12,717 nt of DNA from Gammaproteobacteria bacterium HGW-Gammaproteobacteria-3. GTDB lineage: Bacteria > Pseudomonadota > Gammaproteobacteria > Methylococcales > Methylomonadaceae. The stretch lies in the NCBI GenBank assembly GCA_002843155.1, contig PGZD01000079.1, positions 1 through 12,717 of the forward strand, in the 5' to 3' direction. This document shows, in pieces, positions 181 to 12,717 of this stretch (positions are counted from its first letter, which is position 1; every line of letters begins with the position of its first letter). Both the position numbers and the translations under genes were made by a program. A model generated the notes under the pieces. The model saw only the letters and a program-made list of their open reading frames with translations. It made no database searches and was not told where the DNA came from.

Positions 181-520
181 ATGGCCCGATTCATCCAATA
201 CGACCGTAACCAATACTACCTGCTGCCGCCGTCGGTGGATGAATGGCTGCCCGAAGATCACTTCGCCCGGTACATCGTCGAAGTCATCGATCAACTGGGT
301 TTGTCGAAGCTGACCGGCCGCTATTCGCGCAGCGGTTCCGAGGCCTATCATCCGGCGTTGCTGCTGGCCTTATTGGTTTACGGCTATGCCACCGGCACCT
401 TCTCCAGTCGCAAAATAGAAATTGATTTTGTCGGTTTAACCGACCGAGTGCAATTTGACCACAGGCCCTGGAGTGCTTATAAAAACAGGATTGGCGACTT
501 GACGCAGTTGACGCCGGTTT
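181..520 (+). mobile_element. Truncated IS1182/IS5-superfamily transposase remnant; only the N-terminal InsH-like (DUF772) domain survives and no catalytic DDE region is present
   Basis: ORF 181..639 begins MARFIQYDRNQYYLLPPSVDEWLPEDHFARYIVEVIDQLGL...GSEAYHPALLLALLVYGYATGTFSSRKIE. This is the characteristic N-terminal signature of IS1182/IS5 transposases (YDRNQ..LLP, LPEDH.AR, YGY..G..SSRKIE). Recognisable similarity fades after about aa 80-110. The rest of the ORF is non-transposase sequence and overlaps the opposite-strand GGDEF gene. No DDE domain, second ORF or terminal inverted repeats were identified. Confidence 0.6.
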
Positions 521-2250
521 ATAAAAAAACTGTTGCCGTCGATTTTTTTGGCCAATTTTTTGGCTTCCGACGCCAGATCGGCTATCTCGACATGCGATTG
601 GCATTGGCTGGTTGCCAACGGGTCCACCAAACCCACTGACAGGCTCAGGAGCGGAAAAAAAACTGACTGGCCTTGCCGGTTTTCACTGGTAATGCCGCCC
701 GCTTTGACATCCGCCTCGTTATAAAAAGAAGGGGCGACGCTTTTGAATGTGTCCAGAATATCCTGGCAACGTTTCAGCCAATCCGGGCGGGTTAAAATGA
801 CAATGAAATCATCGCCGCCGATATGCCCGACTGTGCCAGATTCCGGCGTTATATGTTGGTTCAGCGTGTCGGCGACGGCTTTGATAATATCGTCACCGGC
901 GCTGTAACCGTAGGCATCGTTAAACGGCTTGAAGTGATCCAGATCAAAATAGGCGATGGCAAAAAAACTGTTCTGGTTGAGCAGTCTGTTGATCTTTTCA
1001 TTCATCGGCACATTGCCGGGCAGCAGGGTCAGCGGATTGGCGTGCTTGGCATTTTGAATCTGCTGGCGCGTTATTTCCTCAAGCAGGTCGAGCAAGGTGC
1101 CGACGCCTGCGTATTGGCCGTTATCGGTAATGATAAAAGCTTGATCGCTGCGTATGGCGGCAGTCACTTGTTGGCTGACTTTTTCCAGCGGCGTGTTGGC
1201 GTCAACCAGCAAGGGAGCGTGTTCAATAAATGATTTTATCGCCTGCTTACCGTACAACTCCAGACCATAACGGCTTGAAAACAGTTTGCTCAGGAATTTT
1301 TCGCGGCAAATAAGCCCTGTGGCCTTGCCGTTATCGACCAGCGGCTGGTTTTGTAATTGTGTGTTTTGATGAAACAGTGTCATGACGTCACTGATTGCAG
1401 TTTGTGCCGAAACCGGAACAATCCATTGGCTGATATCGGCTGCTATTTTGTTGTGTTGATCGATCTGCATTGTATGGGCTGAAACGAACAGGCCGGGACC
1501 GATTGTGGTCAGGGGCTGTGCAGCGGGCCTTGCAAAATAAAAACCCTGGGCGTGAGTGATGCCGAGTTTTTCAATGGCCTGGTATTCGGCCTTGATTTCG
1601 ATGCCTTCGGCAATCACTTTGCAGTTCATGGCTTGGGCGATGGCTTGAATGGAGCGGACAAAATTCAATTTGACCGGGTCTTGATGCAAACCCTGGATAA
1701 AATGTTTGTCGATTTTGACATAGTGGGGGCGTAGTTCGGACCAAAGTCTGAGGCCGGAATAACCGGCGCCCAAATCATCGAGTGCGATTTCAAATCCCAT
1801 ATTTTGGTAATGACTGACGGCTTCACGCATCAAATCGTAATCATCAGTGGGTTGATGTTCGGTGAGTTCGATAATGATGGAATGCGGGGCAATATTGAAT
1901 TGTTCAAGCAACCTCAGAGTTTCACCTTTTTTGAAGTCAGGCTCCAGCAGCACCGAAGGGCTGGCATTTAAAAATAATTTGGCGTCAAAGGCCAATTCGG
2001 CAAAGCGCTTGAGCGTGATTTCACGGCAAACGAACTCCAGTTTGGCTTGCAGGCCAAAGCGCCCGGCGGTATCGAAAAGATTGAACGGACTGTGCAGCGA
2101 GCTGTTTGAAGGGCCACGAATCAAAGCTTCATAACCGATGATTGTTTGTTGATGCAGCGAAATGACGGGTTGAAACACGGGCTTTAATAATTTACCATCA
2201 ATGATTCGAATCAACTCGTTATGTAAAGAAGTTATGTTCATTGGGGGCAA
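436..2250 (-). CDS. c-di-GMP turnover protein with N-terminal EAL phosphodiesterase domain, central CBS pair and C-terminal GGDEF domain (EAL-CBS-GGDEF)
   Basis: 604-aa ORF. The EAL domain carries YEALIR (nt about 2122-2130), DDLGAGYSG and EGIE motifs (aa about 25-245). The middle region (aa about 265-395) looks like CBS repeats. The GGDEF domain (aa about 415-578) carries FDLDHFKPFND and a variant active-site motif GGDDF (nt 805-819). The annotated start at 2250 is TTG; an in-frame ATG lies at 2241, and neither has a convincing SD. Confidence 0.9.
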   Translation of the reverse strand: MPPMNITSLHNELIRIIDGKLLKPVFQPVISLHQQTIIGYEALIRGPSNSSLHSPFNLFDTAGRFGLQAKLEFVCREITLKRFAELAFDAKLFLNASPSVLLEPDFKKGETLRLLEQFNIAPHSIIIELTEHQPTDDYDLMREAVSHYQNMGFEIALDDLGAGYSGLRLWSELRPHYVKIDKHFIQGLHQDPVKLNFVRSIQAIAQAMNCKVIAEGIEIKAEYQAIEKLGITHAQGFYFARPAAQPLTTIGPGLFVSAHTMQIDQHNKIAADISQWIVPVSAQTAISDVMTLFHQNTQLQNQPLVDNGKATGLICREKFLSKLFSSRYGLELYGKQAIKSFIEHAPLLVDANTPLEKVSQQVTAAIRSDQAFIITDNGQYAGVGTLLDLLEEITRQQIQNAKHANPLTLLPGNVPMNEKINRLLNQNSFFAIAYFDLDHFKPFNDAYGYSAGDDIIKAVADTLNQHITPESGTVGHIGGDDFIVILTRPDWLKRCQDILDTFKSVAPSFYNEADVKAGGITSENRQGQSVFFPLLSLSVGLVDPLATSQCQSHVEIADLASEAKKLAKKIDGNSFFINRRQLRQVANPVFISTPGPVVKLHSVG

Positions 2251-2366: not shown

Positions 2367-2395
2367 TTGCCTTATTCTTAAGTTAGCATTAAAAT
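2367..2395 (+). promoter_or_regulatory. Candidate sigma70-type promoter for the downstream six-gene operon: TTGCCT (-35, 2367-2372), 17-nt spacer, TAAAAT (-10, 2390-2395)
   Basis: Read directly in the AT-rich divergent intergenic region. The predicted transcription start near 2402 would give a 5' UTR of about 50 nt before the ATG at 2453. This is a sequence-pattern match only. Confidence 0.3.
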
Positions 2396-2452: not shown

Positions 2453-4771
2453 ATGCCCGATACTTCTAAGAATAGTGGGGAAAACCGAGCGCCGATCCAG
2501 CTTGAATTGCTTGCGGCTAAAACCCGGCAGACGCTCAACTGCACGTTTAACCAGGCCTGTCGGCTGGGCAGTGCCAAGAGCAATGATGTTGTTATTGCCG
2601 GGGAAACCATTTCAGCCCATCACGCCAGAATTTTTGTCACCGACGATGGCGCTGTTTTCATTGGCGCCTGCGAGGGCGCCGCAGTTGCCGTCAACGGCAC
2701 GGTCGCCGATAAGCCTTTACTAGTAACCGCCGGCGATTGGGTGCTGTTGGGTTCCACTCCTTTCCAGGTCAAATTTAACAGCATCCCTCAGCCCCTTGTC
2801 GAGGTTGGTGACGCTTCTTCCCAACACATTGATTTATCGGGCAAGTCTGTATTGACCGTAGGTCGATTGCCGCAATGCGATATCGCCATCGCGTCGCCGC
2901 TGATTTCCCGTGAGCACGCCCGTTTGGTCAGGGCGGCGGACGGCTGGTTTATCGAAGATAGCGGCAGCACCAACGGCACTTTCCTCAATGCTGTGCGTGT
3001 TCTGGGCAGGCAAGCGCTAAAAGCCCATGATTGGCTAAGCTTTGCCGCTTTCGAGTATCAATTTGACGGACAGCGCATTATCCCCGGCAATCAAGCCGGG
3101 CAAGTCAATATCGAAGTGTATCGCTTGAGCAAAGAAGTCAGGGACGCATCGGGCCAAACCAAGCGCTTGCTCGATGATCTCAGTTTCGCCATCCGGCCGG
3201 GCGAATTTGTCGGCATTTTCGGCACCAGCGGTTCCGGTAAATCGACTTTGCTGGATGCCCTGAACGGCCGCCGCAGGGCTTCTTCCGGTGATATTTTATA
3301 CAACGGCACCGACTTGTATGGGGCTTTCGATCTGTTTCGCGCAGCCATCGGCTATGTGCCGCAACAAGACATTGTGCATCGTAAAATCATCATGCGCCAT
3401 GCCTTGAAATTTACCGCTAAATTGCGCTTGCCGCCGGACACTTCCGATGTCGAAATGGATGATAATGTGCTCAAGGTGCTGGAAAAAGTGGGGCTGGCAG
3501 AAAAAGCCTCATTGGCGGTGGACACACCTACGCCTTTGAGCGGTGGCCAGTTGAAGCGCGTCAGTCTGGCGGTGGAATTGGTCGCCAATCCCAATGTGCT
3601 GTTTTTGGATGAGGTAACCAGCGGCCTGGATGCCGGTACCGATAAAAAAATGATGCAACTGTTCCGGAGTCTGGCCGAAGACAAGAAAACCGTGATTTGC
3701 GTGACTCACACCCTGGAAAATATCGATACCTGTCATCTGGTGTTATTGCTGCATCAGGGGCGGCTGGTTTTTTTCGGCCCGCCGCAGGCCGTGGTCGGCT
3801 ATTTCGGCATGAAGCGTTTGTCCGATGTTTATGAACTGCTCGAAAGTCAGGTGGCTTCTTATTGGGCCGATAAATACCAGGCCTCCAGTTTTTATCACAC
3901 CTATGTCGCGCAGCGCTTGAACTTTTCCGGGCAGCGCACGGACGGCGCGACGCAAACAAACAGTGCACAACCGTCAGGCAAACCCGTTTCGCAAAGCTTG
4001 CGCCAGACCAGAACATTAATATTGCGTTATTGTGAGCTGATGCTGTCGGATCGAAAAAACCTGCTGATATTGGTATTGCAGGCGCCGTTGATTGCCCTGA
4101 TTATCGGTCTGGTGTTCGAAATGGACGCGCAATTGGCATTGCGGGCGGCCAAACAAAGTCAGATTCTCTTTATTCTGGTTTTATCGGCAATCTGGTTCGG
4201 ATGCCTGAATTCGGCGCGGGAACTGGTCAAGGAACTGCCGATTTATATCCGTGAACGCTCGGTCAATTTAGGTCTCGGGCCTTACATTGCCAGTAAACTG
4301 ATACCGTTATCGTTGCTTTGTTTACTGCAATGTCTATTATTGTTGGGTGTCATTGCCCTGTTGATCGACGTGCCGGGCAATTTTCCACAGCGCTTGTTGA
4401 TTTTGTTCGCATCGGGCATGGCGGCCACGACCATGGGTCTTTGCGTCAGCGCCTTTGTCAATTCCAATGACAAGGCCGTTGCCACCGTACCGATACTGCT
4501 GATTCCGCAGGTGATTCTGTCCGGCGCCGTGGTAACGCTTGAAGGCGCGGGGCTTTGGATAGCCAAGTTGAGCATGATTTCGTATTGGTCTTTTGATGCG
4601 ATGAAAGCGACGCTCAGCGAAGAAGTCAGAGCCGTCAAGGATTTTACCGGGAAAGCGCTGGTGCCCATTGCCGGAAGTTTTGGTCTGGATTTATTGGCGA
4701 TTGCCGCACTGGGGCTGTTTTTTCTGTTGGCAACAGGCATCGGGCTTAAACTCAAGGATACTAAAAAATGA
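2453..4771 (+). CDS. Tandem-FHA ABC transporter: two N-terminal FHA domains fused to an ABC ATPase (NBD) and a C-terminal ABC-2/ABCG-type six-helix membrane domain (half-transporter)
   Basis: FHA1 lies at about nt 2558-2776 (GETISAHHARIF...GDWVLLGSTPFQVKF). FHA2 lies at about nt 2850-3070 (LTVGRLPQCDIAIASPLISREHARL...GSTNGTFLN). Walker A GTSGSGKS is at 3221-3244. The ABC signature is LSGGQLKRVSLAVEL and Walker B is VLFLDEVTSGLD. A Ser/Thr-rich linker RTDGATQTNSAQPSGKPVSQS separates the NBD and TMD. Hydrophobic helices run from about nt 3990 to 4760. The probable start is ATG 2453 (AAGG 9 nt upstream); the track ORF begins at an in-frame TTG at 2435. Confidence 0.9.
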   Translation: MPDTSKNSGENRAPIQLELLAAKTRQTLNCTFNQACRLGSAKSNDVVIAGETISAHHARIFVTDDGAVFIGACEGAAVAVNGTVADKPLLVTAGDWVLLGSTPFQVKFNSIPQPLVEVGDASSQHIDLSGKSVLTVGRLPQCDIAIASPLISREHARLVRAADGWFIEDSGSTNGTFLNAVRVLGRQALKAHDWLSFAAFEYQFDGQRIIPGNQAGQVNIEVYRLSKEVRDASGQTKRLLDDLSFAIRPGEFVGIFGTSGSGKSTLLDALNGRRRASSGDILYNGTDLYGAFDLFRAAIGYVPQQDIVHRKIIMRHALKFTAKLRLPPDTSDVEMDDNVLKVLEKVGLAEKASLAVDTPTPLSGGQLKRVSLAVELVANPNVLFLDEVTSGLDAGTDKKMMQLFRSLAEDKKTVICVTHTLENIDTCHLVLLLHQGRLVFFGPPQAVVGYFGMKRLSDVYELLESQVASYWADKYQASSFYHTYVAQRLNFSGQRTDGATQTNSAQPSGKPVSQSLRQTRTLILRYCELMLSDRKNLLILVLQAPLIALIIGLVFEMDAQLALRAAKQSQILFILVLSAIWFGCLNSARELVKELPIYIRERSVNLGLGPYIASKLIPLSLLCLLQCLLLLGVIALLIDVPGNFPQRLLILFASGMAATTMGLCVSAFVNSNDKAVATVPILLIPQVILSGAVVTLEGAGLWIAKLSMISYWSFDAMKATLSEEVRAVKDFTGKALVPIAGSFGLDLLAIAALGLFFLLATGIGLKLKDTKK

Positions 4772-4793
4772 TGTGCAACGAGGCCGTGACAAG

Positions 4794-6338
4794 ATGAACG
4801 AAACCCTAGCGGAAGCCAGTCGCACCTGCCCTAAATGCGGCCATCGGGACGCGACCGAAAAAATAGAGGCGCATAAATACCGCTGTTCGGGATGTGAATA
4901 TGAAATGGCGCATATCGATACCGCGCCTAATGGCGCTATCCGGGGCATTTTCGGTTGGTTGAAAACGGTCGATGAGGTGATCGATTCACGTTATAAAATC
5001 CAGATGGTGCTGGGCAAAGGCGGGTTCGGCGCGACTTATCTGGTTGAAGATCAGCGCGTCAGCGGCAAACGCTGGGCGCTCAAGGAAATTCCGGAAATGC
5101 TCTTCGATGAATACGAAGTGTCGCTGCTGAGCGGCCTGGATCATCCTTCGATTCCGATTATCGTTGATCGTTTCAACGAAAATGGCATGGTGTATCTGGT
5201 ACTGAAATTCGGCGGCAGCCGCACGCTCGCCACGGAATGTAAACAACACAACAGAATCGTTTTTCCGAAGCTCAAAAACTGGGCTATCCAGATAGCCGAA
5301 GTGCTTGGCTATCTGCATTCACGAAATCCGCCGATCATTCACAGGGATTTAAAGCCGGAAAATGTCTTGCTCGATGATGAAGATCGCATCATGCTGATCG
5401 ATTTCGGTATCGCCAAGGAAGCATCACCTACCGAAATGACCCGCACATTAGGCCGCGCGGCTTCCATCGGCTTCAGTCCGCCGGAGCAGGTGATGGGCAC
5501 GGGCACCGACATACGCTCCGATATTTATTCCCTCGCGGCTACCGTTTATTTTGCCGCGACCGGCCAGACGCCTGTCGCCGCGCATGAACGTGTGTCCGGC
5601 AAAGCGCTGATAGAACCCAAACAGATTGCCACCGAATTACCCGATGCCGTCAATGCGATGCTGTTGAAAGGGCTCAACCTCAATGTCAACGAACGCCCGC
5701 AAACGGTTGCGGAATTTATCGGCGTTTTCAGTGATGACCTGCCGTCGGCGACTGAGGCGATGTTGTCCGGCAAAACCGTGCAAATCTCGGAGCTTCAATT
5801 CGGTCCGGTTATCAAGACGGCATTGAATCCTTCGACGCCGCTGACCCGGATGAATTCCGCCGCTGTCCACGCTGAAAAAAAAGCGGGTCTGAAGTTCGGT
5901 TTGATTATCGGAGCTGTTATGCTTCTGGCCGCTATGACTGGTGGCGCTTATTGGCTGTTAAATAAAGATGAAACGGCAACGCCACTGCAAGAGGTCGCCA
6001 GCCCGGAAGCGCAAACACCGCCCGTAAGCCCGGCGCAACCTCAACTGGCGACTGTTGACACGCAATCGCCCAAAGCCGCTGCAACGGGCGGGGACGGAGC
6101 GGATAACGCCGGACTCTCGGCCATGGACATTTTAAACAAGCGCAGACAAACGCAGGCGGAGCCGAAGCCGGAACCGGTGGTCAATAAAGCCGCGCAACAG
6201 CTCGATTCGACACGGACGGCACAAAAAACCGTAGTGCCGAAACCAAAATCCAAGCCTAAACCGGTCGCCAGAGCGAAGTCCAAGGAAGATAATTCAGGTT
6301 GGGTGATTATTCCGGGCCAAACCCAAAAAATACGCTGA
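4794..6338 (+). CDS. Hanks-type Ser/Thr protein kinase with N-terminal C4 zinc ribbon, single TM helix and Pro/Lys/Ala-rich low-complexity C-terminal tail
   Basis: The zinc ribbon is CPKCGH-x16-CSGCEY. Kinase motifs are the Gly loop GKGGFG, WALKEI (VAIK lysine), HRDLKPENVLL, DFG and SPPE (APE-like), spanning about nt 4990-5700. The hydrophobic segment LKFGLIIGAVMLLAAMTGGAYWLL is at about nt 5890-5960. The tail has PKPEP/KPKSKPKPVARAKSK repeats. The ATG at 4794 lies 22 nt after the upstream stop. The longer track ORF from 4668 overlaps the ABC gene and is rejected. Confidence 0.9.
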   Translation: MNETLAEASRTCPKCGHRDATEKIEAHKYRCSGCEYEMAHIDTAPNGAIRGIFGWLKTVDEVIDSRYKIQMVLGKGGFGATYLVEDQRVSGKRWALKEIPEMLFDEYEVSLLSGLDHPSIPIIVDRFNENGMVYLVLKFGGSRTLATECKQHNRIVFPKLKNWAIQIAEVLGYLHSRNPPIIHRDLKPENVLLDDEDRIMLIDFGIAKEASPTEMTRTLGRAASIGFSPPEQVMGTGTDIRSDIYSLAATVYFAATGQTPVAAHERVSGKALIEPKQIATELPDAVNAMLLKGLNLNVNERPQTVAEFIGVFSDDLPSATEAMLSGKTVQISELQFGPVIKTALNPSTPLTRMNSAAVHAEKKAGLKFGLIIGAVMLLAAMTGGAYWLLNKDETATPLQEVASPEAQTPPVSPAQPQLATVDTQSPKAAATGGDGADNAGLSAMDILNKRRQTQAEPKPEPVVNKAAQQLDSTRTAQKTVVPKPKSKPKPVARAKSKEDNSGWVIIPGQTQKIR

Positions 6339-6450
6339 GACACGATTTGGCGTTGGACCATCAAGGATTTAATGAATATCGGGGGCTGAAGTTTTCAAAC
6401 CCGATTTTCAGGGATGAAAGAACTTTTCAATAATTTAAGAGGGGGTTGTC

Positions 6451-7614
6451 ATGATTATGCGTTTCAAACAAAGGCTGTCGGCTGCAAATACAGGAGGCAG
6501 AGGAGTGGGCGCCGGGTTGTTGACGGTGCTGATTCTGGTTCAGGCCGTGCTGTTTTCGACGGCGGCGAATGCCGGAGGCTACGGCTCTGCGGCACTGGGC
6601 AGTTATGGGGTAAAAGTATACCGGGTCAATTCAGCCCTGTATCCTTTTGTCCAGCTTTATATCAGGACTTTCGATCAAAATATGCAGCCGTTGGTAAATC
6701 TCAACGAACTGAACATCGGTCTGATGATTAAAGGCAAGTCCTATGATCCGACTAAACGCCAATACGGCATTCAAACCTTGCGTCGGCGCAGTGAGGCGAC
6801 GCGTTCCGTATTGGTGCTCGATGCCAGTAAATCCATGGTGGGACCTGCGTTTGAAACGGCTTTGCGGGCGGCGGCCCGCTTTATCGACAGCAAGCGGCCA
6901 CAGGATGAAGTCGCGGTACTCGCCATTCGCGATACCAAGGAGGGCTATGAACTGGTGTCGGAATTCGAACGTGATAGCGGCGCTTTGGCAAGAAGGCTCG
7001 CCGATATTAAAGTCGATGGCATGAACAGCCGTATTTACGATTCCGTCGGAGCAAGCATACAAATGTGCGGCATGTCCTCGCAAGGTTCTTCCGTCGATCC
7101 TTCGGCCGATAATTTTATCGCCTCGTGTTCGATCGTGGTCTTTTCCGATGGTCGGGATGAGGGCAGTGCGCTGTCACGCGAAGAGCTGAATGCAAGGATT
7201 ACCGCGTTGCCGATTCCCGTTCCGGTTTATTCGCTGGCCTATGGCGCTAATTCCGTTCAATATTTCAGAAACCTGGAATCCATTTCCAAAAATTCATTCG
7301 GTATCTATTATTCGTTGGGTGAAACCTATGACCGAATGCAGCGTGTCGTCGAAGAAATCCAGAATATTCTGCAAAGCGACTATGTCGTGACTTTCCGTTC
7401 CTATCTTCCGGTTGACGGCGAGCAGCACGCTTTTAAAGTGGGCGTTGAATACCCCACCGGCAGCGGAAAATATTACTATGACAAAGGCGAATTCGAAGCG
7501 ATAGAGCCGCCGCCCATTCAAGCAATTGATAATGCCCTGCAACTGCTGGAACAAAAAATTCCGGCCTTAGCGGACAACGACCCCTATTACAAAAGACCGG
7601 CGCCGGGTCAATAG
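6451..7614 (+). CDS. Secreted von Willebrand factor type A (VWA) domain protein with intact MIDAS motif
   Basis: A strong RBS GAGGGGG lies 6 nt upstream of ATG 6451. The N-terminus MIMRFKQRLSAANTGGRGVGAGLLTVLILVQAVLFSTAANA is signal-peptide-like. The VWA fold spans about nt 6810-7240, with MIDAS D-A-S-K-S (LVLDASKSM) and downstream T and D (VVFSDGRDEG). The C-terminal region of about 120 aa has no obvious family. Confidence 0.85.
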   Translation: MIMRFKQRLSAANTGGRGVGAGLLTVLILVQAVLFSTAANAGGYGSAALGSYGVKVYRVNSALYPFVQLYIRTFDQNMQPLVNLNELNIGLMIKGKSYDPTKRQYGIQTLRRRSEATRSVLVLDASKSMVGPAFETALRAAARFIDSKRPQDEVAVLAIRDTKEGYELVSEFERDSGALARRLADIKVDGMNSRIYDSVGASIQMCGMSSQGSSVDPSADNFIASCSIVVFSDGRDEGSALSREELNARITALPIPVPVYSLAYGANSVQYFRNLESISKNSFGIYYSLGETYDRMQRVVEEIQNILQSDYVVTFRSYLPVDGEQHAFKVGVEYPTGSGKYYYDKGEFEAIEPPPIQAIDNALQLLEQKIPALADNDPYYKRPAPGQ

Positions 7615-7638
7615 TCTTAAACTAAGGAGAATGGGAAA

Positions 7639-8256
7639 ATGAATCAACAATTGGCAAGAACAACGGTGAGCGCGATCATTTGCGCGAGTTTGCTCACCGG
7701 TTGCGCAACTACACAGGAAAACCAGCAAGCCTGGGGAGCCGGGTTGGGCGCGATTACCGCCGGATTGGCCACGGGATTGGCCACCGGTAATGTCGGTTAC
7801 GGGATTGCCGCTGCGGTAGGCGGCGCGGCCATCGGATGGGGCGCGGTCAAGCTGGCGCAATATAACTCCGAACAGGTGCGCAGCGCTTCTCAGGACCAGG
7901 CCTTGTATGGTTTCACGCCTTCATCGAACGCGACGCTGGTCAAACTACACAAAGGTACGGCGTCTCCCGATACGGTAGCGCCCGGACAGCAGGTGCAAAT
8001 TGCCAGCGATTATTCGTTAGCGGTTCCTGAAGCTCAAAATATGACAGCGGTGCAGGAAAGCTGGACCCTAAAAAAAGATGGTCAAGTTCTTTTTCAGGCC
8101 GACCCGCAGAATGTACAGCGGACAGCCGGGGGGTATGCCGTCAATGCTACCATCCCGATACCCAAAAACGCTTCGGCCGGTACCTATGTCGTTGAAACCC
8201 GCGTGCAGGCAGGCACCAGCAGTGATTTCAACCAGGCCGTCTTTGTCGTTCAGTAA
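7639..8256 (+). CDS. Lipoprotein with N-terminal glycine-zipper region (SlyB/17-kDa-antigen-like) and a C-terminal beta-rich domain of unknown function
   Basis: RBS AAGGAG lies 9 nt upstream. The lipobox is LLTGC (SAIICASLLTGCATTQ). The glycine zipper is GAGLGAITAGLATGLATGNVGYGIAAAVGGAAIGWGAV. The gene is 24 nt downstream of the VWA gene. Confidence 0.8.
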   Translation: MNQQLARTTVSAIICASLLTGCATTQENQQAWGAGLGAITAGLATGLATGNVGYGIAAAVGGAAIGWGAVKLAQYNSEQVRSASQDQALYGFTPSSNATLVKLHKGTASPDTVAPGQQVQIASDYSLAVPEAQNMTAVQESWTLKKDGQVLFQADPQNVQRTAGGYAVNATIPIPKNASAGTYVVETRVQAGTSSDFNQAVFVVQ

Positions 8257-8260
8257 CAGG

Positions 8261-8959
8261 GTGTCGTCAGGCGGGCTATGCTTGATGGTCTGCGCATTCG
8301 GTTATGCCGAACCCGCAGACGCCATTTGCGCCGGTGAAGTCAGCCGGTCAATGGCCGCCGCCTTGCGCATTGAGCAGGAATGGCCATTGAGACCGAGTCA
8401 GGACAGTATCACCCGTTATTTGCAAAATCTGGGAGAGCGTTTGCTGCCTCGCGGCGGTTCCTGGTTAAAGTGGCTTAGGGCGGATGACTGGCCGGCTTCC
8501 GGCTGGTTTTTTTTTACCGTTAGGGATCGTGCGATCAATGCGTTTTCCATTGGCAACGGGCGCATTTATCTGACCGACGGCAGTTTTGATTTTGTCGATA
8601 ACGAAGCTGAATTGGCGGCTATCGTTGCTCATGAAATAGGGCATCAACTGGCCGGACATTTCTGCCAAGCCACGGACCGCACCGGTCGTGAACAAAATTC
8701 CCTGGGTTCTCTGGTGCAGGTTGTCGATATCGAAAAAGAAATGGAAGCCGATGCCATTGCGTTGAAACTTTTAAGTTCGGCCGGTTTCCCGCCGCAGGCC
8801 TTACTGAAAATCATCAGCCGCTTACCGCTGACCGGCAATAGCGCGCAGCAGCGTTTAAGATTGGATAAGTTAAACGAAAAACTGCAAGACGCAAATGTTT
8901 CGCCGCTATTTTCCAGTTCCCGGGTGTTTTTACAGCTCAAAAAGTCATTGCCTCGATAA
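8261..8959 (+). CDS. M48-family zinc metallopeptidase (HExxH plus E-x-EAD third ligand; BepA/YcaL/LoiP-like). Start uncertain
   Basis: Motifs are AIVAHEIGHQLAGH (HExxH) and EKEMEADAIALKLL (M48 EMEAD motif). Candidate starts are GTG 8261 (5 nt after the lipoprotein stop, suggesting translational coupling), TTG 8282 or ATG 8285. The track ORF from 8078 overlaps the lipoprotein gene in another frame and is rejected. The N-terminus (LCLMVCAFGYA) is only weakly signal-peptide-like. Confidence 0.75.
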   Translation: MSSGGLCLMVCAFGYAEPADAICAGEVSRSMAAALRIEQEWPLRPSQDSITRYLQNLGERLLPRGGSWLKWLRADDWPASGWFFFTVRDRAINAFSIGNGRIYLTDGSFDFVDNEAELAAIVAHEIGHQLAGHFCQATDRTGREQNSLGSLVQVVDIEKEMEADAIALKLLSSAGFPPQALLKIISRLPLTGNSAQQRLRLDKLNEKLQDANVSPLFSSSRVFLQLKKSLPR

Positions 8960-8978
8960 CATCAAGGCATGAGCGTTT

Positions 8979-9725
8979 ATGAAATTTAAATTTTTTAAAA
9001 GATCGAGTCAAAAATCATCCTGTCCACTTGTGCAAGTCAGCGCTCTTTCTCATCCGGGACGTGTCCGGGATAATAACGAAGACAGCTTTATACTGTTGCC
9101 CGATTGGGGAGTTTGGGCCATTGCCGACGGCATGGGCGGTCATCAGTGCGGCGAAGTCGCCAGCGCCATCGGCTTGATGGCCTTGCAGCGATCGCTCGTA
9201 GCCGGTGACAATCTGGTGCATTCGATACAAAATGCCCATCAGGCAATCAAAAAGCAAGCCGAGCAGGACACTACAAAAAGTGGCATGGGTACGACGCTGG
9301 TGGCGGTACAAATACACGGGGAAAGTTATCGGGTGGCTTGGGTCGGCGATAGCCGGGCCTATTTATGGCACAATGGCTTGAGGCAATTGACCCGGGATCA
9401 TAGCTATGTGCAAATGCTGCTGGAGCAAGGGCTGATCGATGAGGCCGACGTCCTGACACATCCTTATAAAAATGTCATCACGCAGGCTTTGGGTAGCCTG
9501 GATAAGGAGTCGGTTCAGGTCGAGACGATAGAGGAAAAATGGAAGTCAGGCGCTAACTTGCTGCTGTGCAGCGATGGCTTGAGCAGTCAGTTAAGCGACT
9601 CAGAGATTGCGGCCATTCTGGCAACGGATTGCTGTTTGGAGCAAAAAGCCGGGCAGCTTTTGACACGGGTCTTGGCTAACACGGCTGAAGATAATATCAC
9701 ACTGATCTTATTGGCCTTGCCATGA
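8979..9725 (+). CDS. PP2C-family Ser/Thr protein phosphatase (Stp/PrpC/PppA-like)
   Basis: Motifs are VSALSHPGRVRDNNEDSF, WAIADGMGGHQCGEVAS, GMGTTLVAV, VGDSRAYLW, NVITQALGS and LLCSDGLS, the canonical metal-binding Asp/Gly motifs of bacterial PP2C. The gene is 19 nt downstream of the M48 gene. Confidence 0.9.
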   Translation: MKFKFFKRSSQKSSCPLVQVSALSHPGRVRDNNEDSFILLPDWGVWAIADGMGGHQCGEVASAIGLMALQRSLVAGDNLVHSIQNAHQAIKKQAEQDTTKSGMGTTLVAVQIHGESYRVAWVGDSRAYLWHNGLRQLTRDHSYVQMLLEQGLIDEADVLTHPYKNVITQALGSLDKESVQVETIEEKWKSGANLLLCSDGLSSQLSDSEIAAILATDCCLEQKAGQLLTRVLANTAEDNITLILLALP

Positions 9726-9755: not shown

Positions 9756-10682
9756 TTAAACACATTTCGATATATCCACGCCGGTTTTGTCCAACAGTTC
9801 CCGGCGTAGCTTTTCCGCTTCCGCCACTTTTTGCATCAAGTCCGGTTCCGGACAGTGTTTATCAGTGAAGCGTCTGATACCGCCCGTTTTTCTCTCGTTG
9901 ATAACTTCAACGATGGTCTTCCAGCCAATATCCTTATCATCATTGGCAAAAGCAAACACTAAAGCAAGATCGCATACATTGTTGATCAGTCTGGGTACAC
10001 CGGCGGTGTAATAAAAGATGGCGGCTGACGCCGATTTTTTAAAAATCGGTGTTTGTCTGCCGGCAATGCGCAGTCTGTGCTCGATGTATTGCTCGGTTTC
10101 TTCAAAATTAAGGGGCAAAAGATGATATTCAATGGAAATACGTTGGGCGAACTGTACGAGCTGAGGCTCGTTCAGTTTATCGACCAGTTCGGGTTGTCCG
10201 ACTAAAATCAACTGCAACAGTATTTCTTGCGTTACATTAATGTTGGAGAGCAGCCGGAGTTCTTCCAGTGTTTCGATTTCCATGTTCTGGGCTTCATCGA
10301 CGATCAGGACGACGCGGCGCTTTTTTTGACCTTGTTCGTGGAGAAATTTGACAAAGAGCTGATAACGTTCGGCTTTGTTATTAGTGTTGTGTTCAATATT
10401 GAAAGCCGCCAGAACCCAGGTCAGCAAGTCGCCAAAAGAGCTATGGGTGTTGGTAATGATGCCCACAGTGCACTGTTTTTCAATTTTGTTCAACATGCAG
10501 CGGATTAAAGTGGTCTTGCCTGAACCTATTTCACCGGTAATCACGGTAAAGCCTGCGTGGCTCATAAGTCCGTACTCCAGGGTGGTTAAAGCTTTTCTGT
10601 GTTTAGGGCTTAAAAATAAAAACTCCGGATCGGGAATCAGAGAAAAGGGCTTTTTTTTCAGTCCAAAGAATTGAGTGTACAT
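9756..10682 (-). CDS. ExeA/GspA-family AAA ATPase, short form with cytoplasmic ATPase domain only (MshM / PEP-CTERM-associated ATPase-like)
   Basis: Family signatures are MYTQFFGLKKKPFSLIPDPEFLFLSPKHRKAL, Walker A GEIGSGKTT, Walker B VVLIVDEAQN, ILVGQPEL and AGVPRLINNVCDLAL. No TM segment and no peptidoglycan-binding C-terminal domain are present. I prefer the ATG at 10682 (AAGAGA-like RBS upstream) over the track start at 10700. The gene converges on the PP2C gene across a 30-nt gap. Confidence 0.85.
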   Translation of the reverse strand: MYTQFFGLKKKPFSLIPDPEFLFLSPKHRKALTTLEYGLMSHAGFTVITGEIGSGKTTLIRCMLNKIEKQCTVGIITNTHSSFGDLLTWVLAAFNIEHNTNNKAERYQLFVKFLHEQGQKKRRVVLIVDEAQNMEIETLEELRLLSNINVTQEILLQLILVGQPELVDKLNEPQLVQFAQRISIEYHLLPLNFEETEQYIEHRLRIAGRQTPIFKKSASAAIFYYTAGVPRLINNVCDLALVFAFANDDKDIGWKTIVEVINERKTGGIRRFTDKHCPEPDLMQKVAEAEKLRRELLDKTGVDISKCV

Positions 10683-10934
10683 GCGTTTTTCTCTTACCAA
10701 CTGTGATGAATCATGGAAAAATGCTGATAGTCTATCGGTTAAGTTTTAACTGTTCCTGAATCGAACAGTAGATGATGAATGGAAACACACAGGAGTCCCA
10801 TGATTTTGAGTTAACAGCTTTTTCATTATAGCGTATTCAGTCAGGCCATGCCCTCAGGATAAGGTGTGATTTATGGGCTTAAAAGTGTTGCCATCTCATT
10901 TTTTAGCGCCTCAAGATACTGCAACCGGCAAAAA

Positions 10935-11588
10935 TCATCCAAAAAGTTGCTTTATCAGAGCAGTTACGCTTATCAGCAAATCCTGTTTAGTGTTGTCGAG
11001 TGCGTAGTTATTTTCATAGGTGGAAAAATCTATATTGGCCCGGCTTTGCTTTTTCTTTTTTTGGCTGTGTCGCCGTGCTTGTAATAATTGGCCGCCCGCT
11101 CTTTTCCATTCCATAAGATGAGTGATTTCACCGCTATCGAGCCAGATGCCATGCGCCGGACAACGGTCTATAATAACGCCGCTGCGGTGACCAAAATTAA
11201 TGCGGCTCATGAAGTTTTGGCATACCGGACATTTGATATACTTTGTTTTCTGCTGAGCCTGAAAACGGTCGGCATTGATGTTGACCAGATGTTTGCGGTT
11301 GATAGTGAACGTTGCAGCTACCGAACTTTCCAAAAACCGTTCTATTTCATCTGGATCAAAAAATAAACCGTAACAGCTCCCGCAGCGTTCGATCAAAAAT
11401 TCTTTTTGTGGATCGAGGCTGATAGTTTGTAAAGCTTCATCGCAATGCGGACAGATGCGATTTGAAGCATCGTTGTATAAAGCGTAATCGAACTTGCCGG
11501 TCAGATCAACATCATTGCGCACACCGCAATAACGACATCGATTGGTATTGGCTAAAAGTGGTGCGGAACAACTGTTGCAGCGCGCCAT
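10935..11588 (-). CDS. Zinc-ribbon protein with an N-terminal CxxC..CxxC pair and two zf-TFIIB-type modules (YdjG-like)
   Basis: The N-terminal ribbon is CNSC..CRYC. Module 1 is CPHC..CGSCYGLFFDPDEIE and module 2 is CPVC..IDRCPAHGIWLDSGEITHL, matching the zf-TFIIB pattern CPxC-x(15-20)-CxxCxGxWxDxGE. The C-terminus is basic (KKKKQSR). The start ATG at 11588 lies 3 nt after the stop of the upstream SPFH gene. Confidence 0.8.
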   Translation of the reverse strand: MARCNSCSAPLLANTNRCRYCGVRNDVDLTGKFDYALYNDASNRICPHCDEALQTISLDPQKEFLIERCGSCYGLFFDPDEIERFLESSVAATFTINRKHLVNINADRFQAQQKTKYIKCPVCQNFMSRINFGHRSGVIIDRCPAHGIWLDSGEITHLMEWKRAGGQLLQARRHSQKKKKQSRANIDFSTYENNYALDNTKQDLLISVTALIKQLFG

Positions 11589-11591
11589 GGC

Positions 11592-12605
11592 TCACCAACT
11601 GTCGAGGATGTTTTTTTTCCGGGCACTGTATTCATCAACGGTTATCAATCCGGCATCGTGCATTTTTTTCAATTCGAGCAGTTTTTTCATCAGATCGGTT
11701 GCCTCTTGTCTCGATTCGACCGAAATACCTTTGGATAAGGATTGCGCCATGCTTTGGCCCAAACCCATGCCGGCCCCCATGCCCATGCCTAAACCGGCGC
11801 CACCGCCTTCATTTCGAGCCGCTTCGAGCATTGCTTCAAGTTGCTGCAATTGGGCATAATTAATGCCAACGGCTTGAGCCGCCTGGGCTTCTGCGGTCAG
11901 GTCGGCGATGCGGTTAATGCGTCTTAAAGTATCATCGTCAAACTGGGTGCCTTCAATTCGAAAATCAGTCAGCTTAAAACCCAGCTCGTGAAAAACGCTG
12001 GACAGTTTGTTTTGCATACCGTGTCCGATTTCTTCACGGTTGGCGTCAATATCGGCATAGCTAAATTTATTTTCCGCAAGATAGTCAGCCAGCGGGTGTA
12101 GAATGCGCGCAGACATAATGTTGCGGAAATCTTCGTTATAAAAATCGTTTTGACTACCGACGATGTGGGTAAAAAAATTGATCGCATCCTGAATCCGGTA
12201 GCTGTAATTCCCGAATGCCTTTAAGCCTATGGGAAACCGGTATTTTGGGTCTTCATATTTTATGGTTGAGGTAGTACCCCATTTTTGATCAAGCTGCGTT
12301 GTTTTTTTGAAGAAATAAATGCCGACTTTATGTTCACTTTCAAAAAACTGCATGAATTTTTTGACCGTGGTCCAGAAGGGGATATTAGCCGTATTCAGCT
12401 CAATCAGACCTTCTTCCTGAAGCACGGCTTTTACCTCTCCTTCGTAAACGAAAATACAGCCCTGACCTGGACCTACAATCAGTTTGGAAGCGTTTTTGAT
12501 TTCATCGCCATTCTCCGTCCATCGCTGAAACAATGCGTCGGGATGCGGGCTATGCCATTCAATAACCGAACGAAGTTGTCGTTTGATGCCGTCAAAAAGC
12601 GCCAT
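11592..12605 (-). CDS. SPFH/Band_7_1-family protein with Gly/Met-rich linker and C-terminal SHOCT domain (YdjI-like)
   Basis: The N-terminus MALFDGIKRQLRSVIEWHSPHPDALFQRWTENGDEIKNASKLIVGPGQGCIFV matches the YdjI-type SPFH family signature (VIEW...D.LF.RW...EIKN.SKLIV.PGQ). The linker EGGGAGLGMGMGAGMGLGQS is at nt 11754-11810. The SHOCT-like tail is QEATDLMKKLLELKKMHDAGLITVDEYSARKKNIL. I prefer the ATG at 12605 (GAGG 7-8 nt upstream) over the track start at 12653. Confidence 0.85.
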   Translation of the reverse strand: MALFDGIKRQLRSVIEWHSPHPDALFQRWTENGDEIKNASKLIVGPGQGCIFVYEGEVKAVLQEEGLIELNTANIPFWTTVKKFMQFFESEHKVGIYFFKKTTQLDQKWGTTSTIKYEDPKYRFPIGLKAFGNYSYRIQDAINFFTHIVGSQNDFYNEDFRNIMSARILHPLADYLAENKFSYADIDANREEIGHGMQNKLSSVFHELGFKLTDFRIEGTQFDDDTLRRINRIADLTAEAQAAQAVGINYAQLQQLEAMLEAARNEGGGAGLGMGMGAGMGLGQSMAQSLSKGISVESRQEATDLMKKLLELKKMHDAGLITVDEYSARKKNILDSW

Positions 12606-12717
12606 GTTTAGCCTCGCTATTAAGTTGAATCGTACAGAGGCCATGCTGAGCAAAGGAATAGCCTCTCAAAAGAATTGGTTTTATAATGAAAAAAAGTATA
12701 GTCAAAATTTGCAGGAG

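Follow-up and report, generated by a model that had tools for sequence, protein, structure and literature searches.

On the forward strand of the 12,717-nt stretch of DNA analysed here (hereafter the window; contig PGZD01000079.1 of Gammaproteobacteria bacterium HGW-Gammaproteobacteria-3, assembly GCA_002843155.1), six co-directional open reading frames at positions 2453-9725 encode an FHA-domain ABC transporter, a Hanks-type Ser/Thr kinase, a VWA protein, a Gly-zipper lipoprotein, an M48 protease and a PP2C phosphatase. These genes constitute an uncharacterised and widespread cassette, a new variation on the known logic of phosphothreonine (pThr) signalling and not a new kind of system, in which the VWA protein, the FHA-ABC transporter, the kinase and the lipoprotein form a universal core and M48 and PP2C are accessory. 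On balance, sequence conservation makes it probable that the cassette is a trans-envelope Ser/Thr phospho-signalling module controlling an ABCG-like exporter, in which the kinase would sense the envelope and pThr sites would dock the exporter. An earlier note, made from the sequence alone, had not recognised the exact arrangement as a described system, and no account of it was found in the literature searched; for the domain combination, this literature yielded only a Deinococcus operon of VWA, Ser/Thr protein kinase (STPK), FHA and PP2C genes and the triads of Kaur et al., neither of which is this cassette.

In Gram-negative bacteria, signalling by Hanks-type kinases is well understood chiefly in the control of type VI secretion systems (T6SS), and FHA-regulated ABC export is, to our knowledge, known essentially from one mycobacterial pair. 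If the proposed reading is correct, kinase-gated ABC export would extend to methane oxidisers, nitrifiers of ecological importance and, likewise important, sulfur oxidisers and sulfate reducers, with a dedicated periplasmic sensing arm, and it would constitute a new envelope-homeostasis pathway if the exporter moves envelope lipids. The analysis offers hypotheses at the level of residues, namely an invariant threonine of the kinase, a match between the numbers of Thr motifs and FHA domains, and a C-terminal Trp peptide.

Gene order and conservation across genomes

The six genes are as the earlier note described them, and its interpretation holds in outline, with corrections of detail. Every domain it named was confirmed by Pfam: FHA (two stretches), ABC_tran and ABC2_membrane, in that order, on the ABC protein, and Pkinase, VWA_2, Peptidase_M48 and PP2C/PP2C_2 on the remaining frames. 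The motifs of the kinase, phosphatase, ABC protein, metal ion-dependent adhesion site (MIDAS) and M48 protease are intact. NCBIfam has no model specific to any of the cassette proteins, and its matches were generic ones to ABC, kinase, BepA-core and Stp1 models. The same six genes are called on identical public metagenome contigs (772, 514, 387, 205, 224, and 248 aa). The intergenic gaps are, in gene order, 22, 112, 24, 28, and 19 nt, close to the 5-112 nt claimed before, and the fourth shrinks to 4 nt if M48 starts at GTG 8261. This start (232 aa) is preferred over that of the public gene call at 8285 (224 aa) because it would restore a signal peptide like that of the orthologs.

A genome scan with one genome per species gave 415 matched stretches with a relative of the FHA-ABC gene, of which the best 80 loci were fetched and scored for synteny by tblastn and hidden Markov models built from orthologs. 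Genome counts for the gene order of the window (type I) were restricted to the 42 loci in which the sequence continues for 6 kb or more beyond the ABC gene. Of these 42, 36 keep ABC > kinase > VWA > lipoprotein > M48 in this order, amid unrelated flanks, and they come from Methylococcales, Nitrosomonas, Chromatiaceae, Syntrophobacteraceae, and Desulfacinum; the kinase gene comes after the transporter gene in nearly all loci of sufficient length. Methylomicrobium sp. wino1, Nitrosomonas mobilis, and a Methylobacter metagenome-assembled genome (MAG), with transporters 77, 63, and 56% identical to that of the window, have the same genes in the same order after the transporter and wholly different flanks. 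Cultured carriers among the best 80 loci include Methylotuvimicrobium buryatense 5G, in which the six-gene form is present (locus L080), Thiococcus pfennigii, and Thiorhodococcus drewsii, along with Imhoffiella purpurea, Thiobaca trueperi, and Marichromatium gracile; MAG carriers include members of Syntrophobacteraceae, Desulfacinum, and Desulfobacteraceae. The genes are a co-ordered unit across many genomes, and the possibility left by the earlier note that their order is unique to this genome falls away. Intracytoplasmic membranes are built by most of the closest carriers (type I methanotrophs, Nitrosomonas, and Chromatiaceae), a pattern that may be due to biology, a common habitat or sampling. 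A block of Syntrophobacteraceae and other sulfate reducers is also found among the carriers.

Seeding a metagenome scan with the VWA protein brought up further type I cassettes together with 17 loci of another order (type II; Table 1), which reads VWA > FHA-FHA-ABC (~890 aa) > kinase > Gly-zipper lipoprotein, with or without PP2C; in some loci one variable gene stands between VWA and ABC. No M48 gene was detected in these 17 loci, and the ABC and VWA genes are directly adjacent in most of them. The G+C content of type II contigs spreads from 36 to 64%, and therefore several lineages carry this order. At the sequence level, the recurrence of the same four components in shuffled order is strong evidence that they work together. 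The conserved core is thus smaller than the six-gene unit first proposed, as M48 is tied to one order and PP2C is facultative. PP2C is nevertheless a recurrent member: it follows M48 in 8 of the 36 type I genome loci and is present in 8 of 16 adequately long type I metagenome loci (about a third of type I overall) and in 8 of the 13 type II loci carrying the lipoprotein gene, occasionally lying upstream or on the opposite strand. Besides PP2C, no conserved flanking gene was found upstream or downstream of type I and type II loci, and therefore the EAL-GGDEF, AAA_22 ATPase, zinc-ribbon and SPFH neighbours in the window are not part of the system.

Among the 38 complete loci, median identity to the window is 65% for VWA, 54% for ABC, 51% for the kinase, 43% for the lipoprotein, and 38% for M48; the VWA protein is the most conserved, at 58-83% identity across orders. 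Insertions occur in single lineages. In Methylomicrobium, a 142-aa protein without a Pfam match is encoded between kinase and VWA (L007:13981-14409), and in Methylobacter three small genes (no Pfam match, DUF6794, and DUF4359) lie between M48 and PP2C (L009:16758-18337).

Conserved features of the encoded proteins

The predicted topology places the kinase domain, the FHA domains, the nucleotide-binding domain (NBD), and PP2C in the cytoplasm; the periplasm would hold VWA, the lipoprotein and M48 together with the tail of the kinase. The transporter has TIGR00955 as its top NCBIfam model and PDB matches that include CDR1, ABCG2, and ABCA; Walker A, signature and Walker B are invariant in its alignment, and its periplasmic loops are short. 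Judged by its fold class, the transporter would more probably export a lipid, glycolipid or polymer than a protein. The tandem FHA reader postulated in the earlier note is an overstatement: two FHA domains are present, but only FHA2 is canonical. FHA1 has neither the Gly-Arg pair nor the conserved Ser, keeps only structural residues, and is probably not a pThr binder, whereas FHA2 matches both solved FHA domains of Rv1747 (6ccd and 6cah) at E ~1e-5. A single canonical GR..SxxH..[ST]xNG signature was present in 67 of 68 type I transporters, and two canonical FHA domains in all 19 of the type II transporters (19/19). The inter-FHA linker is ~25 residues long and unconserved. Conserved Thr or Ser residues were looked for in the alignment of the inter-FHA linker and of the linker between NBD and transmembrane domain (TMD), and none were found; the proposal that an ST-rich linker acts as phospho-acceptor is not borne out, and the candidate site lies on the kinase instead.

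The kinase consists, in order, of a zinc ribbon, the kinase domain, a juxtamembrane linker, one transmembrane helix (around residue 364), and a disordered periplasmic tail. The zinc ribbon is found in 54 of 58 type I kinases and in none of 14 type II kinases. Thr328 stands out in a juxtamembrane linker that is otherwise unconserved: 57 of 58 orthologs have it, with Val at +1 in 41/58 and V/I/L/M at +3 in 48/58, giving the consensus [RK]-T-V-x-[VIL]. A typical FHA ligand is a pThr with a hydrophobic residue at +3. Most type I kinases have one Thr motif (44/57; mean 1.11, shuffles 0.41), and type II kinases have two (10/14) or three (3/14; mean 2.14, shuffles 0.52). Because the number of Thr motifs on the kinases tracks the number of canonical FHA domains, we infer that the juxtamembrane pThr sites would be docking sites for the functional FHA domains of the transporter. 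Type I cassettes may possibly have swapped one phospho-dependent contact for a phospho-independent one, between FHA1 and the zinc ribbon.

The periplasmic tail of the kinase measures 132 aa in the window and a median of ~170 aa in orthologs, and it is rich in Pro (up to 30%). No Pfam domain was found in this ectodomain, and its conserved sequence is limited to the last dozen residues. The C-terminal 14-mer in the window, SGWVIIPGQTQKIR, corresponds in orthologs to W-x-[IV]-I-P-G-G-x-x-K-T-D and variants; 47 of 58 type I kinases have a Trp within the last 16 aa, and the motif is also retained in type II (e.g., G-G-W-K-V-I-E-N-K-D-R-K-V-N). The Trp motif accompanies the lipoprotein gene, being present in 51 of 60 cassettes with this gene vs. 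2 of 6 without it (Fisher p = 0.012, uncorrected for phylogeny). In the lipoprotein-less cassettes L047, L025, and L108, the kinases end in [RK]-[AI]-[IR]-[KR]-D-F, not in the Trp motif. The kinase C-termini of L023 and L024 have W together with D-F/D-I.

Of the periplasmic proteins, the VWA protein begins with a hydrophobic helix bearing a conserved A-x-A site, has two invariant Cys, and is therefore placed in the periplasm; its AlphaFold2 model has a pLDDT of 77. Together with the signal peptide, a complete MIDAS (D124, S126, S128, S/T193, and D233) upholds the earlier description of a secreted VWA with MIDAS. The glycine-zipper lipoprotein described before is likewise supported, by a lipobox Cys (C22) invariant in 34 homologs and by G-x3-G repeats; the protein itself has no Pfam match, and many of its homologs carry Gly-zipper_YMGG (PF13441). 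It resembles SlyB/Pcp-type (YMGG) lipoproteins in having a lipobox Cys followed by a Gly-zipper hairpin, modelled by AlphaFold2 at residues 29-68 with low confidence, but differs from them in an extra Ig-like beta sandwich, which is predicted confidently and has generic structural neighbours only. Ala at +2 suggests outer-membrane sorting by the E. coli rule. M48 shares HExxH and a downstream Glu with BepA/LoiP and is best matched by the BepA protease domain, the NCBIfam BepA model scoring 57.5 bits (E 1e-15) over the protease core only, against a cut-off of 570 bits; unlike BepA, it is only ~225 aa long and has no TPR. Its conserved N-terminal Cys and the Cys of GHFC suggest a disulfide.

The phosphatase scored 213 bits with the NCBIfam Stp1/IreP-type model, below the cut-off of 230. 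In one divergent six-gene cassette (L091:12146-19908), PP2C is followed on the same strand by genes for a bacterial alpha-2-macroglobulin (1892 aa) and a PBP1c-type transglycosylase/transpeptidase, a known periplasmic pair; this was a single occurrence.

Table 1. Features of the cassette in the window, and metagenome loci with type II order
Feature	Coordinates	Strand	Remarks
Candidate sigma-70-like promoter, TTGCCT-17-TAAAAT	2367..2395	+	9/12 consensus match, statistically undistinctive
FHA-FHA-NBD-TMD half-transporter, 772 aa, ABCG/White-like	2453..4771	+	ABC_tran then ABC2_membrane (Pfam)
FHA1, degenerate	2525..2767	+	Gly-Arg replaced by G-S/N; only NG and GDW invariant
FHA2, canonical pThr-binding signature	2849..3052	+	G137 R138, S152, H155, S172-T173-N174-G175 invariant
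Bitopic Hanks-type Ser/Thr kinase, 514 aa	4794..6338	+	Pkinase 118 bits; HRDLKPEN, DFG conserved
N-terminal zinc ribbon of kinase	4827..4895	+	C12-x2-C15...C31-x2-C34, then conserved E-L-A-H-L-D-x-A-x-N-G
Juxtamembrane K-T328-V-Q-I, proposed FHA2 docking site	5772..5786	+	Conservation
C-terminal Trp motif, S-G-W-V-I-I-P-G-Q-T-Q-K-I-R	6294..6335	+	End of kinase tail
Periplasmic VWA protein, 387 aa	6451..7614	+	Signal peptide, N-terminal beta domain, VWA domain, C-terminal beta domain
Lipoprotein, 205 aa	7639..8256	+	Lipobox L-T-G-C22, Gly-zipper helical hairpin, Ig-like beta sandwich
Small periplasmic M48 zinc protease	8261..8959	+	H116-E-I-G-H, G-H-F-C, K-E-x-E-A-D, numbered from ATG 8285
Cytoplasmic PP2C phosphatase, 248 aa	8979..9725	+	DGMGGH, GDSR, SDGL, DN-T conserved
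Type II loci	e.g., L167:9698-16620		L117, L120, L121, L145, L147, L149, L153, L157, L158, L160-L162, L165-L167, L169, L170

Proposed mechanism, rival readings and known systems

In the mechanism proposed for the signalling module, the bitopic kinase would autophosphorylate Thr328 within [RK]-pT-V-x-[VIL], and FHA2, as the sole canonical FHA domain of the transporter, would dock on pThr328; docking would bring the exporter to the kinase and so switch its activity or its clustering. The degenerate FHA1 may bind the zinc ribbon of the kinase in a phosphate-free manner, and PP2C, where encoded in the cassette, would reset the switch. Control of kinase activity would come from the periplasm, where the Pro-rich tail is predicted to be long enough to span the compartment and its terminal Trp peptide would probably be engaged by the outer-membrane lipoprotein and/or the MIDAS-bearing VWA protein, with M48 as a putative modulator in the type I order.

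Several observations weigh against this reading. Phosphorylation of Thr328, its binding by FHA2 and any contacts of the Trp motif with VWA, the lipoprotein or M48 are deduced from conservation and co-variation, and the co-variation of FHA domains with Thr motifs is uncorrected for shared ancestry and involves essentially two clades, so that the contrast between type I and type II may be a single evolutionary event. The residues after the Thr also differ, being T-V-x-[VIL] in type I and T-[LVM]-L-x in type II. No acidic residue that would be an obvious MIDAS ligand is conserved in the Trp motif, and PP2C is missing from most type I cassettes. A promoter-like match comparable to the upstream one lies at 6405-6434, in the 112-nt gap between kinase and VWA. 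Finally, a reduced variant in Thiorhodovibrio winogradskyi (CP121472.1; L090:7582-11161) has the VWA gene directly after the FHA-ABC gene; kinase, lipoprotein and M48 genes are absent within 10 kb, and a gene for a GGDEF protein follows. Judging from this locus, the link between ABC and VWA may be more basic than that with the kinase.

By analogy, the cassette works most like PknF/Rv1747 and the TagQRST-PpkA-Fha1-PppA module of the T6SS, without being a member of either, and the parallels with both that the earlier note had drawn were judged apt (PMC3138270, PMC7817224). PknF positively regulates the two-FHA ABC transporter Rv1747 (PMC3138270), whose reported phospho-sites, T152 and T210, lie in the inter-FHA linker (PMC8339232). 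A strict form of this logic, in which the kinase phosphorylates the transporter and FHA binding in cis or trans drives oligomerisation or clustering that activates export, would leave the kinase Thr irrelevant or secondary. The shared FHA-FHA-NBD-ABC2 TMD architecture, the adjacent membrane-bound Hanks kinase (22 nt away here), and the resemblance of the canonical FHA2 to the FHA domains of Rv1747 speak for it (PMC3138270), but the short linker and the absence of invariant Thr or Ser outside the folded domains of the transporter do not, and with no conserved linker Ser/Thr the Rv1747 arrangement, with phospho-sites in its own linker, is unsupported here. The Thr motifs that track FHA number, with the candidate docking Thr among them, are on the kinase and not on the transporter, and FHA1 is degenerate in type I, while type II relatives have two canonical domains; we regard this strict form as unlikely. 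Further differences from PknF/Rv1747 are the leading position of the transporter gene, a zinc ribbon and a long periplasmic tail on the kinase, additional genes for VWA, an outer-membrane lipoprotein, M48, and, in some cassettes, PP2C, and the Gram-negative hosts.

Envelope damage is sensed in P. aeruginosa by a lipoprotein of the outer membrane, a periplasmic protein and an ABC complex of the inner membrane, together with a kinase and a PP2C (PMC7817224). Fha binds pThr on the membrane protein TssL, which activates the T6SS (PMC3953482). The cassette and the H1-T6SS module are alike in their parts list of lipoprotein, periplasmic protein, ABC protein, Hanks kinase, VWA, FHA and PP2C. PpkA carries a periplasmic VWA domain, whereas the cassette VWA is a separate secreted protein and not a kinase ectodomain; the FHA domains are fused to the ABC protein, with no standalone scaffold in the manner of Fha1; and TagTS is LolCDE-like, whereas the cassette has an ABC2/ABCG-type protein and also an M48 protease. 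A PP2C, as PppA is, is encoded in the window, yet no more than roughly one in three type I cassettes has one. As the earlier note had stated for the structural genes, no T6SS genes were found in the window or in the ±10 kb flanks. The description of TagTS as an ABC-transporter-like signalling complex (PMC7817224) lends itself to another reading, in which the ABC protein would be a mechanotransducer powered by ATP, like FtsEX or TagTS, gated by the kinase and acting on VWA, the lipoprotein and M48, for example by activating proteolysis or remodelling an envelope complex. The adjacency of ABC and VWA, seen in most type II loci and even without kinase, lipoprotein and M48, is in line with this, as are the strong constraint on VWA, expected of a protein with several protein interfaces, and the absence of conserved substrate-synthesis genes nearby. 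Known mechanotransmitting ABC systems, however, use the MacB/FtsX fold, and the TMD here is of the ABC2_membrane class (ABCG/ABCA/Wzm-type), known for export of lipids, polymers and drugs, with short periplasmic loops on the transporter; a mechanotransducer is in our view improbable.

As claimed before, a candidate promoter with a 9/12 match precedes the cassette, within the 202-nt AT-rich region that separates it from the divergent EAL-GGDEF gene, but the kinase-VWA gap holds a comparable match, and transcription of the cassette as one transcript is therefore no more than plausible. On these grounds there could be two independent units that happen to adjoin, with ABC and kinase as a cytoplasmic pair and with VWA, the lipoprotein and M48 (and PP2C) in a periplasmic operon transcribed from a separate promoter within the largest gap, and at one locus (L029) the VWA gene does sit apart, with a second kinase. 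Yet the halves occur together in two gene orders, across classes and amid unrelated flanks, the Trp motif of the kinase tracks the lipoprotein gene, and joint function is compatible with separate promoters, all of which makes independence very unlikely. A role in anti-phage defence or inter-bacterial conflict, built on the kinase/PP2C/vWA core, is less probable still, to the point of being hardly credible. Zinc-ribbon kinase, PP2C and standalone vWA triads do occur inside conflict systems (Kaur et al., PMC7159879), and the kinase matches the PADLOC models mad6 and PD-T4-6; but the PADLOC and NCBIfam matches reflect generic kinase or ABC similarity, PADLOC returned none for VWA, the lipoprotein or M48, and the hallmarks given by Kaur et al. 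(effector diversity, a GTPase/MoxR partner, and rapid divergence) are absent. The conservation of VWA across orders, the absence of plasmid copies (zero matches in a tblastn search of a plasmid collection with the VWA protein), and flanks of housekeeping genes, not defence islands, argue in the same direction. As the PADLOC similarity is generic only, a defence system was rejected as the main explanation. The actinobacterial kinase-PP2C-vWA triads also differ from the cassette in being embedded in GTPase systems and in being without ABC, lipoprotein and M48 (PMC7159879); for the GAP1-N2 GTPase core with its variable effectors, no GTPase was found in the window or in conserved flanks, and the cassette proteins are highly conserved and show no diversification.

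More distant likenesses are found in Sulfolobus and Deinococcus. Sulfolobus ArnA (zinc ribbon and FHA) and ArnB (VWA), with the kinases ArnC/D and PP2A, form a cytoplasmic complex regulating archaellum expression (PMC6509490). In the cassette, by contrast, VWA carries a signal peptide, the kinase bears the zinc ribbon and the transporter bears FHA; structurally, its VWA and ArnB are alike in sharing the VWA fold. In the Deinococcus operon DRA0331-0334, VWA, STPK, FHA and PP2C are likewise encoded together (bioRxiv 10.64898/2026.01.23.701218), but an ABC transporter, a lipoprotein and M48 are missing; its FHA proteins are soluble and PP2C has its own FHA-like domain.

The preferred signalling module has a more specific, and doubtful, extension as an envelope-integrity pathway built on a trans-periplasmic tether. 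The Trp peptide would be captured and released by a complex of lipoprotein and VWA, depending on outer-membrane state, inter-membrane distance or M48 cleavage, and this would toggle autophosphorylation of the juxtamembrane Thr; the pThr would in turn recruit an ABCG-like lipid exporter by its FHA domain and tune envelope lipid supply. Such a pathway would stand beside the sigmaE, Rcs, and Cpx responses as a counterpart based on a Hanks kinase. It would be found mostly in methanotrophs, ammonia oxidisers and purple sulfur bacteria, groups that all build intracytoplasmic membranes.

Neighbouring genes and minor features

Cyclic di-GMP (c-di-GMP) proteins flank the cassette in four unrelated contexts. 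These are an EAL-GGDEF-CBS gene, divergent upstream, in the window (436-2250, minus strand), a CHASE8-HAMP-GGDEF-EAL gene in Methylomicrobium (L007:17969-19987), a GGDEF gene in Thiorhodovibrio (L090:11615-12508), and a PilZ gene in Methylobacter (L009:19206-19574). Such genomes probably encode many c-di-GMP proteins, and the association could be due to chance.

Within 3 kb of the cassette, the window also carries genes for an SPFH protein (Band_7_1, with SHOCT) and a double zinc-ribbon protein (10935-12653, minus strand). In Methylotuvimicrobium/Methylomicrobium, a different SPFH/zinc-ribbon pair (29% identity) is found upstream of the cassette (L007:7244-9851, plus strand), next to a DUF2760-HSP70-HSP70 trio; the pair was not seen in other lineages. 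An orphan AAA_22 ATPase gene at 9756-10700 (minus strand) matches TIGR03015 (XrtA/PEP-CTERM-associated ATPase) with 299.5 bits vs. a cut-off of 324.5, and no exosortase genes were found in the window.

An Rfam scan of the window returned zero RNA families. A 10-bp GC-rich hairpin followed by nine U at 8486-8508 (plus strand; -18.1 kcal/mol) lies inside the M48 coding region; as a terminator it was rejected, being no better than shuffles (z = -1.6). At 181-639 (plus strand), a 152-aa open reading frame matches transposase DUF772 weakly (E 6e-4); it lies on the strand opposite to the EAL-GGDEF gene, whose 3′ end it overlaps, and is possibly an insertion sequence remnant at the contig edge.

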